Below, one piece after another: positions 40,899-45,900 of a DNA stretch of 64,000 nt. The notes under the pieces were generated by a model that was given only the letters and a program-made list of their open reading frames with translations, was not told the origin of the DNA and did not search any database. The stretch's first letter is position 1; each line of letters opens with the position of its first letter. Source of the DNA: Paraspadella gotoi (lineage: Eukaryota > Animalia > Chaetognatha); assembly GCA_051294375.1 (NCBI GenBank), contig CM119271.1, forward strand, positions 8,980,120 through 9,044,119. The letters run 5' to 3'. The translations under genes were made by a program, and so were the position numbers.

Positions 40899-42551
40899 AT
40901 GGCCGGGACTTATTACTTTTCGATCGTGGGCCACAAAGACAATCCTCTCTTCGAGATCGAGTTCTTTCCGCCGACGAAATCCGCGGAACCGAAGAAGGAA
41001 GATCACCGACACCTCAACCAGTTCATCGCCCACGCCTCCCTCGATATGGTCGACGAGCAGATGTGGCTGCAGCCCAACATGTACCTCAAGGTAGAGGGAG
41101 GAGGGGTCAAATTTGAGATTTGCGCTACGAATTAGAACCGAATTAGAATTAAAAAATCAAGTTTTGATCAATTTTCTGCTTCGAAATTAGATCTATGAAA
41201 AATTTTTCCTTTTAATTAGTCGTTTTTTTTTTTTACGCCCCCTCCTATAATTCCAGTCTAACGAGATTTAAGCAATTAACGCTGGGGGCTTATTGAAGAT
41301 TTGAAAAAAGGGGGCTTTGGGAGGGAAACGTCGAACGCGTGCAAAATATGAGGGATATTAGACTCGAGTCTGAAGCGTTGTCCCTTTTATCCCTTTTTTA
41401 ATCGTTCCTCGTTTTTTTAATCCCCTTTTTATCGCTTTCCATTTTTTTTACGGAGTAAAAAAAACCATTATGGCAACAGCCGGGTTGCCTGTGATGCCCA
41501 TTGGGGATGGGGCATCTCACTGTTGGCTTTGGGCTTCCGACCCTCAGTGACGCTCCAGTCACTGGCGCGGTTACCCTAGGACGGTCTCGCTTTGCCAACG
41601 CAGAGGGAAGTCATTAAGACTGTGGATGGAACACTACGCCCTGGATGGTGTGTTCCCCCTCTGAGCAATGGATTTGGCTGACGGATGGTGGACGTGAGGC
41701 GGTGTGAATATACACCACAGGATCCCCGGGCCAAGACATCACTCAGGTTCCTCAAGCCTGAGAGGTGTCTGACAAGACTGTTACCATAGTGGAGAGAGAG
41801 AGAGAGCGCGAGTTGTGGGGGCATAGGCGTTTGTCGTAGCGTACCCCAGGGATAGGCGTTTGTCGTAGCGTACCCAAAGTCGGCAGGGCATAGGCGTTTG
41901 TCGTAGCGTACCCTGAGAAGGTTGCGTGTTCGATAGTAGGGCTCACCACTTATGGCAACAGCCGGGTTGCTGTGATGCCCATTGGGATGGGGCATCTCAC
42001 TGTTGGCTTTGGGGGCTTCCGACCCTCAGTGACGCCTCCAGTCACTGGCGCGGTTACCCTAGGACGGTCTCGCTTTGCCAACGCAGAGGGAAGTCATTAG
42101 GACTGGGATGGAACACTACGCCTGGGATGGTGTGTTCCCCCTCTGAGCCAATGGATTTGGCTGACGGTGGTGGACGTGAGGCGGTGTGAATATACCACCA
42201 CACCATCCCCTTTTTTTTAATAACCATCTTCTCGTTTGAAAATGTTTGCATTGCTTCTTTTATGACACTCTTTTTAACTCCCACGTACCCTCACTCCCCC
42301 GTCTCCAATTTCAGACCGTGGACAAGTTCAACGAATGGTACGTCTCCGCATTTGTCACGGCTGGACGCGTCCGCTTCATCATTCTCCACGACCAAAAGAA
42401 CGAGGACGGCATCAAGAACTTTTTCTCGGAAATGTATGAGACTTACGTCAAACACTCCCTCAACCCCTTCTACGAACACAACACCCCCATCAAAAGCCAG
42501 GCCTTTGAGCGGAAGGCCCAAGCGTGCGGTCGTCGTTATCTCAGTTGTTAA
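40899..42551 (+). CDS. TRAPPC2: Trafficking protein particle complex subunit 2 (sedlin), 2 exons (40899-41090, 42315-42551)
   Basis: [75 protein letters not shown]. Confidence 0.97.
41522..41599 (-). ncRNA. Twister ribozyme (type P5) in the 3' LTR of copy 1
   Basis: Same motif as 42002-42082, except the P4 C-run is two nt shorter and the P3 loop one nt shorter (possible homopolymer errors). Predicted cut between 41573 and 41572. Confidence 0.7.
41820..41913. repeat. Three ~27-bp direct repeats inside the element's internal region
   Basis: (GGC)ATAGGCGTTTGTCGTAGCGTACCC three times. Also present at about 45127-45222. Confidence 0.93.
41916..41948 (-). promoter_or_regulatory. Extended primer-binding site complementary to the 3' half of tRNA-Trp
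   Basis: The + strand reads AGAAGGTTGCGTGTTCGA-TAGTAGGGCTCACCA. The recalled eukaryotic tRNA-Trp 3' half is AGAAGGTTGCGTGTTCAAATCACGTCGGGGTCACCA. The site abuts the LTR and recurs at about 45225-45257. Confidence 0.78.
42002..42082 (-). ncRNA. Twister self-cleaving ribozyme, circularly permuted type P5, in the 5' LTR of copy 1
   Basis: Minus strand: GUUGGC AAA GCGA GA CCG UCCUAGGG UAA CCGC GC CAGUGAC UGGAGGC GUCACUG AGGG U CGG AA GC CCCC AAA GCCAAC. P5 GUUGGC/GCCAAC, P2 CGC/GCG, P3 7 bp, P4 GGG/CCC, T1 CGG/CCG, T2 GC/GC. Conserved UAA, GA and U-NNN-AA-GC loop are present. Predicted cut between 42056 and 42055. Confidence 0.8.
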
Positions 42552-42900
42552 ACGCCGATGATGCACCTTGGTCCCCTGGTTGTCTCTAGTCTAATTTTTT
42601 TTCCCGTGTGTTGTTAATTTTTTCATTGCTTCTTTCATTTCTACGTTTCTAAATTATCGTTGATTAATCGTTATCGTTTATAAATTGTGCCCATTTTTTT
42701 TTTCCTCGATTATCAGAGAAAGAAATCTTCTAATGACCGTAATTTCTAAGCGAATTCGCCAGTAGAAATCGGCACGCCGTGCCGTGCGGCAGCTCGTTTC
42801 GTTTCCTGCTGCCATTAATTCCGTGGACAAACAGCGTTTTTCTCTTCCATCTCCCATCTCCCGTGTTCGCTCATCTCTCCCTATCCCCTTCCATCCGTAC

Positions 42901-45900
42901 ATGAAAATGTTTATCGAAAACTTGGACGCGTTCAAAACTTGGTTGGCCAAGACTCTGGCGCCGATATGCGACGCCGACCCCGCAGCCCTTGCCAAATATG
43001 TGGTGGCCTTGGTGAAAAAGGACAAACCCCTTGCGGATCTGCGCACCAACTGCCTCGACAATCTCAATGTCTTCTTGCAAGACGAGACGACAGGGTTCGT
43101 GGAACTTCTCTTCGAGACCATGCAGAACAAATCATACATTCCTCCGCCGGAAGCTAAAACGGCGCCGGAGGTAATCCCGGCGCTGGATCTGGGAACGCCG
43201 GCGCCCGCTGCCGCCGCCCCGCCTCCGCCGACAATCGTCGAGGCGAAGAAGGACGTCGACATGCGTCGTGGGCGGAGGGAAGGGGCCGAGGAAAGGCACA
43301 GGAGTGACGTTAGAGGAAGAACGGACAGGAGCGGAGGACGAGGTAAGTCAAGGGACCGAAGTTCACTTTATTAGTCAACTTATAATCACTTGTAATCATT
43401 GTAATCTTTTCAGGCCCACACGGCATTCAATCCCGATCTCGATCTCCCGGCGGCCCCGATCTTCCTGGCGACAGACAACGGTCCCGCAGCCCACGCCTCG
43501 GCGACCGACGACTCGGGCGCGACCGTGACCGAGAACGCGATAGGGACGGGAGAGATCACAGGGACAAGGATCAGGCGGGCAGGGATCAGTCGGTTAGGGA
43601 GCAATCTAACAGGGAAAAGGACGTTTTGCCACCGAGGTTAGGAAATCATTGTGGTTTAACACTTTTTCTGGACTATTTATAAACTCTCCTTTTTTTCCCA
43701 GACACGGACGTGCGCCTCTCCGCGGCCGAGACTTGCGCCAGGATTTGGACCGACGAATGGGATTCGTTGGAGGGCGTCAGAGAGGAGCCTACCGCGGGGG
43801 CAGGGGCGGTGGCCGAGCGCCTTATCGTCGATCCCGGTCGCGCTCTCGCTCGTATTCGCCGGGCGGTCGATCGCGCAGTTATTCTCGGTCTTTGTCGCGG
43901 TCGAGATCGAGATCCCCGTCCCGAGAGCGAGGTAATCGGTAGCTGAATTATGTTTTAATTATAATTTGAAGTATTGATTTGAAATAATCTCTTATACAAC
44001 TTCATCGATAGGGAGGCTAGGTACTCTGGGAATGAATAAACAACAATGTGAGAGAGACTTGATTGAAAGCTTGCAGGGATCTACTATGTCATTATCTTGT
44101 AAACGTGTCGGAGGCCTTAAACTACCAGGGGCAAGATAGTTAATTTATTAAATGAATGGATAATTTTTATATTGGTTGTACCAATTTCATAGGAGGTGGG
44201 ATTATCCTAATAAGTTTACATCGTTTTTTGTAGACTTAATATAAGAAAAGTGGTCTTGTAGTCTTGAAGACACACTTAAAATACAATCTGACAAAACTAA
44301 TTGCTTTCTAATCAAAATACGACCATATGCTAATGAGATTGAAAAGACGTCTCATTGAAAAAAATTCACAAATTACTCAGCGACACGTATATTTTACAGC
44401 CCCAATTCGAAGACGATGCCGAGATTTTGACGAGAAAGGGTTTTGTATGGCGGGAGATTTGTGTCCATTCGATCACGGGTAAGTTCTTCTTTTCATAGTG
44501 GGTGAGATTTTTTGTGCGACCGCTTTACGCTTTATTTGCCTCGATACTTCAGGTTCGATCCCGTCGTCGTGGACGACGTGTCTCTGCCGACGATCATGTC
44601 CGGGAGTTCCACGTCGGCGACCGGGTCTAAAACAACCGTGACCTCTGCCGGGTCGGCCAGCGGAAACAATAGCACCTCCACTTCAGGTGAGAAGCTTAAT
44701 GGTCGCGATTTCTTGAAACTATTTAGTATTTTCTAAAAAATAATTTTTCCTGTAAATTAATATCTTTTATACTATGGCAACAGCCGGGTTGCCTGTGATG
44801 CCCATTGGGATGGGGCATCTCACTGTTGGCTTTGGGGGCTTCCGACCCTCAGTGACGCCTCCAGTCACTGGCGCGGTTACCCTAGGACGGTCTCGCTTTG
44901 CCAACGCAGAGGGAAGTCGTTAGGACTGTGGATGGAACACTACGCTTGGGATGGTGTGTTCCCCCTCTGAGCCAATGGATTTGGCTGAAGGATGGTGGAC
45001 GTGAGGCGGTGTGAATATACCGCCACAGGATCCCCGGGCCAAGACATCACTCAGGTTCCTCAAGCCTGAGAGGTGTCTGACAAGACTGTTACCATAGTGG
45101 GAGAGAGAGAGAGCGCGAGTTGTGGGGGCATAGGCGTTAGTCGTAGCGTACCCCAGGGGCATAGGCGTTTGTCGTAGCGTACCCAAAGTCGGCAGGGCAT
45201 AGGCGTTTGTCGTAGCGTACCCTGAGAAGGTTGCGTGTTCGATAGTAGGGCTCACCACTTATGGCAACAGCCGGGTTGCCTGTGATGCCCATTGGGATGG
45301 AGTATCTCACTGTTGGTTTTGGGGGCTTCCGACCCTCAGTAACGCCTCCAGTCACTGGCGCGGTTACCCTAGGACGGTCTCCCTTTGCCAACGCATAGGG
45401 AAGTCGTTAGGACTGGATGGAACACTATGCTTGGGATGGTGTGTTCCCCCTCTGAGCCAATGGATTTGGCTGAAGGATGGTGGACGTGAGGCGGTGTGAA
45501 TATGCCGCCACAATGCTGTATTTATTTTGATTGTTTAATGTTTTAATATTTTTTTAAAAGAATTTTTGTCATTCGTTTTCTCTCCCCCGTCTTCTTAGTC
45601 CCCGCCGCTGAAGGCTACAACCCCGAGGCCCCGGCCATCGCCCCCTTGCAGCCTTCTATTCCCGGCGCCCCACTTCCCCCTGGCATGCCGACCCAAGCGG
45701 CTCTCCTCGGCGCTCCACCCATGCCGCAAGCTCCGCCAGGAATGATGATCGGGCCTCGACCTCCCTTCGGAGCTCCGCTCAACGGCATGCCTCCTTTGGG
45801 TCCACCGCCCGGATGGGCCGGCCTGCCGCCTCCCACCGGTCCTCCACCGAGCATGATGCCCCCGAGGGGTCCTCCGCCCGCCATGTCCGGGGCTCCGAAC

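Follow-up and report, generated by a model that had tools for sequence, protein, structure and literature searches.

A miniature LTR retrotransposon family with a twister-type motif in each LTR in the chaetognath Paraspadella gotoi, and its possible retrozyme-like cycle

Introduction

A 64,000-nucleotide stretch of the genome of the chaetognath Paraspadella gotoi (GenBank assembly GCA_051294375.1, contig CM119271.1, positions 8,980,120 to 9,044,119 of the forward strand; the whole stretch is hereafter the window) contains two full copies, E1 and E2, of a short retroelement that carries a twister-type ribozyme motif in each of its long terminal repeats (LTRs). By its anatomy the element is a terminal-repeat retrotransposon in miniature (TRIM), and it belongs to a dispersed, many-copy family. 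We lean towards the reading that it propagates in a retrozyme-like manner, in which a unit of 483-487 nt would be cut out of the transcript, closed into a circle and mobilised by a helper of the CsRn1 clade of Ty3/gypsy elements. The structure of the elements and of the motif is described below, followed by the variation in the family, the signature of the presumed helper and the alternative explanations.

Structure of the elements

E1 (41469-42202, minus strand) is 734 bp long and consists of a 252-bp 5' LTR (41951-42202), a 231-bp internal region and a 251-bp 3' LTR (41469-41719). E2 (44773-45512, minus strand) is 740 bp long, with LTRs of 253 bp (5', 45260-45512) and 255 bp (3', 44773-45027) around an internal region of 232 bp. 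A first-pass annotation made from the letters of the window alone had drawn two elements of about 735-740 bp at these positions, and its coordinates were borne out. The two copies are 95.7% identical, and the LTR termini in the family are TGT...ATA, as in the 5' LTR of E1, and not TG...CA; the 3' LTR of E1 has several small indels that are possibly consensus errors. The 4-bp target site duplication (TSD) proposed for the elements is perfect in E1 (CCAT at 41465-41468 and again at 42203-42206) but agrees at only three of four positions in E2, where ATAC (44769-44772) is matched by ATGC (45513-45516). The primer binding site (PBS) of E1, TGGTGAGCCC, lies on the minus strand at 41939-41948, 2 nt past the 5' LTR. 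That of E2 occupies 45257-45248 and is part of a longer stretch (45227-45257, minus strand), and the 21 nt after the PBS presumably resemble the complement of the 3' half of tRNA-Trp.

The elements had also been described as having no open reading frame (ORF). No ORF is common to both copies, but E1 alone has a 139-codon ORF starting with ATG and without a Pfam match; the longest ORF in E2 has 80 codons. A size below 1000 bp, two LTRs and the lack of a mobilisation protein are among the marks of a TRIM, and E1 and E2 have all three. The arrangement of LTR, internal region and LTR together with a PBS, a TSD and no conserved ORF also agrees with the earlier description of a non-autonomous LTR element.

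The internal regions contain three ~28-bp repeats on the minus strand (45126-45222 in E2 and 41819-41913 in E1), each of which is predicted to form a hairpin and which may possibly act as a packaging signal. An inverted copy of the LTR end and PBS (16 of 20 positions; 45086-45105, minus strand) is predicted to pair in a long stem that masks the PBS. The 3' LTR of E2 is strongly folded (z -3.7, none of 200 shuffles being as stable). Neither a poly(A) signal nor a run of four T was found on the sense strand of the E2 3' LTR or internal region, and the LTR has no Pol III B box and no tRNA or 5S match, its sole A-box-like 11-mer lying at 44974. A CCAAT motif is located ~95 nt upstream of the predicted ribozyme cut.

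A solo LTR of the same family (13862-14444, minus strand) is split by a 331-bp insertion (14024-14354). This insertion looks like a short non-LTR element; its features are a 10-bp duplication, a tail of (GAT)n and a GC-rich 14-nt motif that occurs three times. In E2, the 8 substitutions that separate the two LTRs are confined to the 5' LTR (45260-45512), which could be due to gene conversion, recombination or assembly polishing.

The twister-type motif

A twister-type motif occurs at the matching site in all four LTRs of the full elements, on the strand of the PBS. The copy in the 3' LTR of E2 was used as reference. It spans 81 nt of the minus strand (44825-44905), is of type P5 with a P3 stem, and has its predicted cut at 44879|44878. 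Its segments follow the order P5, P2, G-A, T1, P1, U|AA, T2, P3, P4 and an L4 loop of the form U-NNN-AAGC, and they align with the twister layout given in Table 1 of PMC8501958 and in PMC5408937. P5 (44905-44900/44830-44825) has 6 bp, P2 (44896-44894/44875-44873) has 3 bp plus a C·A apposition (44876/44893), P3 (44870-44864/44856-44850) has 7 bp and P4 (44848-44846/44837-44835) has 2-3 bp. The catalytic G-A is at 44892-44891, and the two pseudoknots are T1 (44890-44888/44844-44842, three G-C pairs) and T2 (44872-44871/44839-44838, two G-C pairs). P1 is an 8-nt self-complementary segment, present on the minus strand at 44880-44887, 45367-45374, 42057-42064 and 41574-41581, that can form either a 2-bp hairpin or an 8-bp duplex of two copies.

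The other motifs, all on the minus strand, are located at 42002-42082 in the 5' LTR of E1 (predicted cut between 42056 and 42055), at 41522-41599 in the 3' LTR of E1 (cut between 41573 and 41572) and at 45312-45392 in the 5' LTR of E2 (cut 45366/45365, with one broken P2 pair and one broken P5 pair); a further one in the solo LTR (13914-13994) has a broken T1. The claim of a motif of about 81 nt in each LTR thus stands for the four full-element LTRs, with the reservations that the copy in the E1 3' LTR measures 78 nt and that the one in the E2 5' LTR has the extra P2 break. The predicted cuts also reproduce the monomers proposed earlier, 42055-41573 (483 nt) for E1 and 45365-44879 (487 nt) for E2.

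Both T1 (3 bp) and T2 (2 bp) are Watson-Crick paired in all four of these LTRs, a single alignment gap in T2 being a matter of placement within a run of C. The conserved residues of L1 (U|AA and G-A), L2 (GC) and L4 (U-NNN-AAGC) are all present. Published assays found that defects in P1 and P2 are tolerated and that most T1 pairs can be exchanged, whereas the pseudoknots and the catalytic residues are sensitive (PMC11662667, PMC5113685). The positions that were sensitive in those assays are intact in the full-element LTRs. Reading the motif instead as a type-P1 twister that uses a downstream G-A, as in the Rfam alignment, was rejected because T1 cannot form in that register.

A descriptor of the core, written after the motif had been seen, matched three of the four full-element LTRs, nothing else in the window and none of 20000 LTR shuffles; the E2 5' LTR was missed because of its further P2 break. 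In 150 block-shuffled windows there was a single match, or ~3 in 100000 per LTR-sized stretch, and all 17 loci called Twister-P5 by Rfam were recovered.

For comparison, 46 viral-contig loci with type-P5 patterns were collected. After removal of 14 that were duplicates or lacked P2, the set comprised 32 distinct loci, each with 3 or more P2 pairs. Of the 46 loci 20 were scanned, and 17 of these pass Rfam Twister-P5. Several of the viral-contig P5 twisters (L011-L056) bear a P3 hairpin, which is not in the Rfam P5 consensus. Pattern searches of viral contigs and of metagenome sequences found no distant homolog of the motif. A combined PBS and twister pattern hit 7 loci in viral contigs, none of which passes the descriptor. 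A pattern with T1 fixed had no match in the viral contigs and matched two metagenome loci, both lacking P2 or P3 and taken as chance, and an 18-mer of LTR end plus PBS matched one locus, within a long unrelated ORF, also by chance. One chance pattern match, L010:1-1422, is a 474-codon open frame on the minus strand that looks like a narnavirus-type RNA polymerase. Rfam scans of the element found no hammerhead.

Distribution and variation of the family

Copies beyond the window were followed in assembled contigs of public sequencing runs aligned to the window; such contigs show no strand, ends, level or circles. By shared words the family was found in 12 of the 14 listed runs, from 5 studies, and five runs were aligned. 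In the DNA run X1, which may be the sample behind the window, 107 contigs run out of the LTR at exactly 44773 and 112 at exactly 45027, in both cases into unlike, AT-rich flanks, and both E2 junctions are present in contigs at single-copy depth with 0 differences. With more than 100 X1 contigs per LTR end running into different flanks, the question of genomic copy number posed by the first-pass annotation is answered in favour of many copies. In the same run 3360 contigs fall on 136 bp of LTR, and the summed depths are ~800000 for the LTR, ~80000-100000 for the internal region and 29-37 for single-copy flank, which is not a copy number but hints at thousands of copies with many solo LTRs. A ~94%-alike relative is present in the biofilm run X11; run X12, from the same study, has a small word share (0.14), and its pieces have the same loss in the P3 loop as the X11 relative.

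None of the runs with the family is recorded as RNA. Contigs of the element also occur in run X9, which is guessed to be RNA and has a spliced host-gene contig. An interpretation of these contigs as element-specific expression was rejected, because an unrelated high-copy repeat (43992-44191) is covered as heavily. A 506-nt X11 contig joining internal region, LTR and PBS was rejected as a circle, since a collapsed assembly of two-LTR DNA yields the same.

Variants were surveyed over 44800-44935 with a cut-off of 1%, which gave 9 variant rows over four runs. In X1 the variants of at least 1% inside the 81 nt are at 44859 (16%) and 44863 (5.5%), both in the P3 loop, and at 44834 (1.5%) in a linker, and the conserved L1, L2 and L4 residues are invariant at this level. 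At least 6 LTR positions upstream of the motif vary at 6% or more in X1 (among the 40 of 102 rows listed). No variant of at least 1% is found in the 8-nt P1 segment in X1 or X9. The P3 partners 44855 and 44865 change from A-U to G-C in 39 and 39 X1 contigs (0.3%) and in 13 and 14 X9 contigs (~1%); matched counts of this kind suggest that the two changes are linked and that they are likely a compensatory pair. In the X11 relative, none of the 21 substitutions over 485 nt lies in the motif (P ~0.02), and 4 nt of the P3 loop are missing.

The Ty3/gypsy signature

The CsRn1 clade of Ty3/gypsy elements is marked by termini TGT...AAA or TGT...ATA, a tRNA-Trp PBS of the form TGGTGA(G/C)CCCG(T/A) and a 4-bp TSD (PMC2582038). 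E1 and E2 fit all three marks, with termini TGT...ATA, 11 of the 12 PBS letters and a 4-bp TSD. The same TGT...ATA termini, tRNA-Trp PBS TGGTGA(G/C)CCC and 4-bp TSD are described for the clade members PwRn1 and AgCR; unlike these, E1 and E2 have no gag or pol, and a ribozyme is not mentioned for CsRn1 elements in the accessible text of that paper (PMC2582038). A CsRn1-clade element is the predicted candidate for the helper. The first-pass annotation had looked to a Ty3/gypsy partner in general; the signature of such a partner is present and has been narrowed to this clade, but the helper itself was not found in the contigs. Three contigs in runs X10 and X11 match solely a 40-42-bp box made up of the PBS and LTR end (45227-45268) and then diverge, which is a lead to a sister family or to the autonomous helper. 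Plant retrozymes share a box of this kind with their Ty3/gypsy helpers (PMC4918200).

Comparison with known elements and ribozymes

The closest parallel in design is the plant LTR retrozymes described by Cervera, Urbina and de la Pena in 2016 (PMC4918200), which are likewise non-coding and have a self-cleaving motif in each LTR, a 4-bp TSD, a PBS shared with Ty3/gypsy elements and many solo LTRs. They use a type III hammerhead, whereas a twister is predicted here and the host is an animal. Their PBS is of the tRNA-Met type, in contrast to the tRNA-Trp type of E1 and E2, and they are larger, with LTRs of 300-400 bp, a centre of 300-600 bp and a monomer of 600-1000 nt, as against 251-255 bp, 231-232 bp and a predicted ~485 nt (PMC4918200). 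The element likely works like a plant LTR retrozyme, from which it differs in ribozyme class, primer and size.

Animal TRIMs, among them Helenus and Ajax (Kojima 2024, PMC10886601), share with E1 and E2 a length below 1 kb, two LTRs, a PBS, a 4-bp TSD and an inferred gypsy helper, and some animal hosts of TRIMs carry thousands of copies (PMC10886601). Helenus and Ajax (TRIMp3) have a tRNA- or 5S-derived Pol III promoter in the LTR, whereas the LTR of E1 and E2 has no B box. The accessible part of that work mentions no ribozyme in animal TRIMs, in contrast to the twister motif of E1 and E2. The non-LTR retrozymes of animals (PMC7229834; bioRxiv 10.64898/2026.07.22.740005) are also non-coding and have monomers bounded by ribozymes, and some of them, with weak palindromic helices, cleave as dimers (PMC7229834); unlike E1 and E2 they are arranged in tandem, contain type I hammerheads, lack LTR, PBS and polypurine tract and are associated with Penelope elements. 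Twisters have been described in RTE-type LINEs and in viroid-like circles. Those of RTE-clade LINEs such as Perere-3 resemble ours in lying in an animal retrotransposon and in their often weak P1, but the Perere-3 twister is of type P1, single and at the 5' end of the LINE, where it trims the 5' end, with no LTR and no circle (PMC8501958).

With the Rfam family of type-P5 twisters (RF02684) the motif shares the order P2', G-A, T1', P1, U|AA, P2, GC, P4 and an L4 with UNNNAAGC, and both pseudoknots are Watson-Crick paired. It differs from RF02684 in its 8-nt palindromic P1, the C·A at the base of P2, the other T1 sequence, the presence of both P3 and P5, its sub-threshold Rfam score and its location in an LTR.

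A July 2026 preprint (bioRxiv 10.64898/2026.07.22.740005) divides retrozymes into LTR elements with type III hammerheads, mainly in plants, and non-LTR elements with type I hammerheads, mainly in animals; the word twister is absent from the text of it that was available. The first-pass annotation knew of no description of such a family, and the literature searched, which covered neither the supplementary twister lists of Roth, Liu and McKinley nor Repbase entries, likewise contains no twister-bearing LTR element and no animal LTR retrozyme.

A possible cycle and its alternatives

In the cycle that we favour, transcription would start upstream of the motif within the 5' LTR, and both motifs would cut at U|A to give a monomer of 483 or 487 nt. 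Because the motif is permuted at P5, the ends of the monomer could pair again through P5, P2 and T1, which would hold the 5'-OH and the cyclic phosphate in place for a host ligase such as RtcB, an enzyme that circularises animal retrozyme monomers in vitro (PMC7229834). Cuts at equivalent positions of the two LTRs would remove the terminal R repeat, so that a circle, or else a template jump from end to end, would be needed. Reverse transcription of the circle primed by tRNA-Trp would rebuild two LTRs, and the integrase of the helper would insert the DNA, duplicating 4 bp of the target. Compared with their shuffles, the predicted circular monomers are only modestly more stable (z -1.7 and -2.1).

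Hypothetically, the two LTRs may cleave together as a 'double twister', with their palindromic P1 segments paired to each other and each upstream half completing the core of the other. The 8-nt palindrome has a chance of ~0.5% and was spotted after the fact. Two P1 segments are predicted to form an 8-bp duplex of -11 kcal/mol, which is the P1 length of the Rfam P5 consensus. In the folds predicted for whole E1 and E2 transcripts this duplex arises unforced once P2 is crossed, with one LTR of each copy being damaged. A precedent exists in axolotl hammerheads in which a palindromic loop caps a weak helix and which cleave much better as dimers (PMC7229834). If pairing between two LTRs is needed, lone LTRs and the finished circle would remain largely uncut. 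A far-reaching version of the proposal, which we hold only tentatively and consider doubtful as a whole, is that the family represents the first LTR retrozyme of an animal and the first retrozyme driven by a twister, that its RNA is cut solely when both LTRs are in one transcript through the shared 8-bp helix so that solo LTRs spare host transcripts, and that a stable ~485-nt circle is the obligatory template of a CsRn1-clade reverse transcriptase.

Several observations weigh against a twister-driven cycle, and folding is foremost among them. The twister fold lies 9.1 kcal/mol above the best nested fold, compared with a median of 2.5 and a maximum of 4.7 in the 32 natural P5 twisters, and in an energy model that excludes pseudoknots this competing fold raises a real doubt about the twister reading. 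In an isolated pair joined as a palindromic-P1 dimer, the gap shrinks to 5.0-5.3 kcal/mol per core, slightly more than the largest value among the natural twisters. For the complete transcripts it amounts to 9.2 (E1) and 13.2 (E2) per core, and the total advantage of the cross-LTR form is only 3.2 (E1) and 1.0 (E2) kcal/mol. The motif is also atypical for its class, since the first P2 pair is standard in all 32 viral P5 twisters and is C·A in the reference motif, the P1 region of those twisters is 14-25 nt long against 8 nt, and the T1 pair adjoining the catalytic G-A is flipped relative to the Rfam P5 consensus. The Rfam twister models, with which the first-pass annotation had proposed to check the motif, gave no match at the gathering score. 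The best match on the LTR sense strand in a sub-threshold scan was twister-P1, which speaks for the motif, but the scores were only 19 bits (E=2) and 15 bits (E=2.9) against 67, and Twister-P5 (RF02684) had no match in the LTR scans. The motif was likewise absent among the 11 matches, at E of 10 or below, of a custom model (R1) built from the 32 phage P5 twisters, a training set of long-P1, mostly P3-less sequences picked by two fixed T1 patterns.

The evidence from conservation has limits as well. The stretch that is invariant in X11 (44800-44918) runs past the motif into the 3' hairpin, so that conservation is not specific to the motif, and two X12 variant rows of depth 2 (44882 and 44899) fall inside it. 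The family is young. Covariation across copies, to which the first-pass annotation had looked for a decision, amounts to the one P3 pair, which rests on matching counts and not on linked reads, and the five copies in the window show no two-sided stem change. Finally, the polypurine tract is weak, with just 5 purines (45031-45035, minus strand) located 3 nt ahead of the 3' LTR.

These points bear most directly on the explanation that the element is an ordinary TRIM, which makes the standard strand jump at an R repeat, and that the motif is a captured relic or is locked in the competing fold and kept as a structured LTR for packaging, priming or promoter function. The 9.1 kcal/mol advantage of that fold, the absence of an Rfam or custom-model match, the C·A in P2 and the conservation reaching into the 3' hairpins would all fit, and ribozyme-free animal TRIMs with a 4-bp TSD and a gypsy-type PBS are known (PMC10886601). 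We nevertheless think it unlikely. Throughout the family the two pseudoknots and the positions at which twisters are sensitive are intact and do not vary, and T1, with its unusual sequence, is complementary on both sides. P2 forms at 0.9 or more in folds of the growing chain until P4 is complete, and in CHiTA assays ~94% of natural candidates cleaved. A blocked fold of the ribozyme is predicted for the monomers of plant retrozymes too (PMC4918200).

Cleavage need not lead to a circle. If transcription started inside the 5' half of the motif, only the 3' copy would cut and the twister would act as a maker of 3' ends; the product would be a linear RNA that has a short R repeat and forms no circle. 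The lack of a poly(A) signal or Pol III terminator is in line with both this and the preferred cycle, the CCAAT ~95 nt upstream of the cut could place the start within the motif, and Cassandra copes with an 18-nt repeat (PMC10886601). On the other hand, the 5' half of the motif before the cut is only 27 nt long, the start in plant NbRZ1 lies upstream and its 5' ribozyme cuts in vivo, and the palindromic P1 suggests that two complete copies act in concert; we regard this explanation as quite improbable. Least credible, to a degree that makes it very improbable, is an assembly artefact or a chance resemblance to a twister. The window does show signs of consensus errors (single-base indels in E1 and a 758-bp tandem duplication at 4855-6363), and the descriptor was written after the motif had been seen, but the presence of the family in 12 of the 14 listed runs from 5 studies, as judged by shared words, the X1 contigs across both E2 junctions and the shuffle rate of ~3 in 100000 per LTR-sized stretch speak against it, and the junctions and shuffles largely refute it. 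The reading that we prefer over these three remains that of a TRIM with a retrozyme-like circle.

Host genes and other features of the window

E1 is located antisense inside an intron (41091-42314) of a sedlin/TRAPPC2-like gene, with Pfam Sedlin_N positions 19-53 and 54-128 encoded on either side of it. E2 lies, also antisense, in a 912-bp intron (~44685-45596) of a gene for a PWI-domain protein, which is presumably RBM26/27-like; this intron is spliced with GT..AG in a contig of run X9. The animal origin assumed for the window is supported by its DNAJB11-like protein, whose best named matches are at 61-70% and which, in a quick tree built from 41 of the 121 rows, falls in a group with five unnamed proteins.

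Another repeat with many copies, ~200 bp long, lies in an intron of the PWI-domain gene (43992-44191). It is as deep as the LTR in X1, where hundreds of contigs end at 44191, and a shorter relative of it lies near 26470-26588. The ~758-bp tandem duplication at 4855-6363 (97%) covers the first exon of a gene beside an N gap and is probably an assembly artefact. A short tandem array with a unit of ~60-70 bp occupies 35488-35798.

Significance

If the retrozyme-like reading is true, the LTR-retrozyme design has arisen in animals too, with another class of ribozyme and another gypsy lineage, and replication by ribozyme and circle would be a general option for non-autonomous LTR elements. The twister would gain a defined natural role, the making of a circular transposition intermediate, and the family would be a natural counterpart of the engineered tandem-twister circle constructs mentioned in PMC7229834. 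A twister that depends on a dimer would be a new mode for the class, parallel to the double hammerhead. As the motif lies below the Rfam thresholds, similar families may be overlooked in the genomes of other invertebrates.

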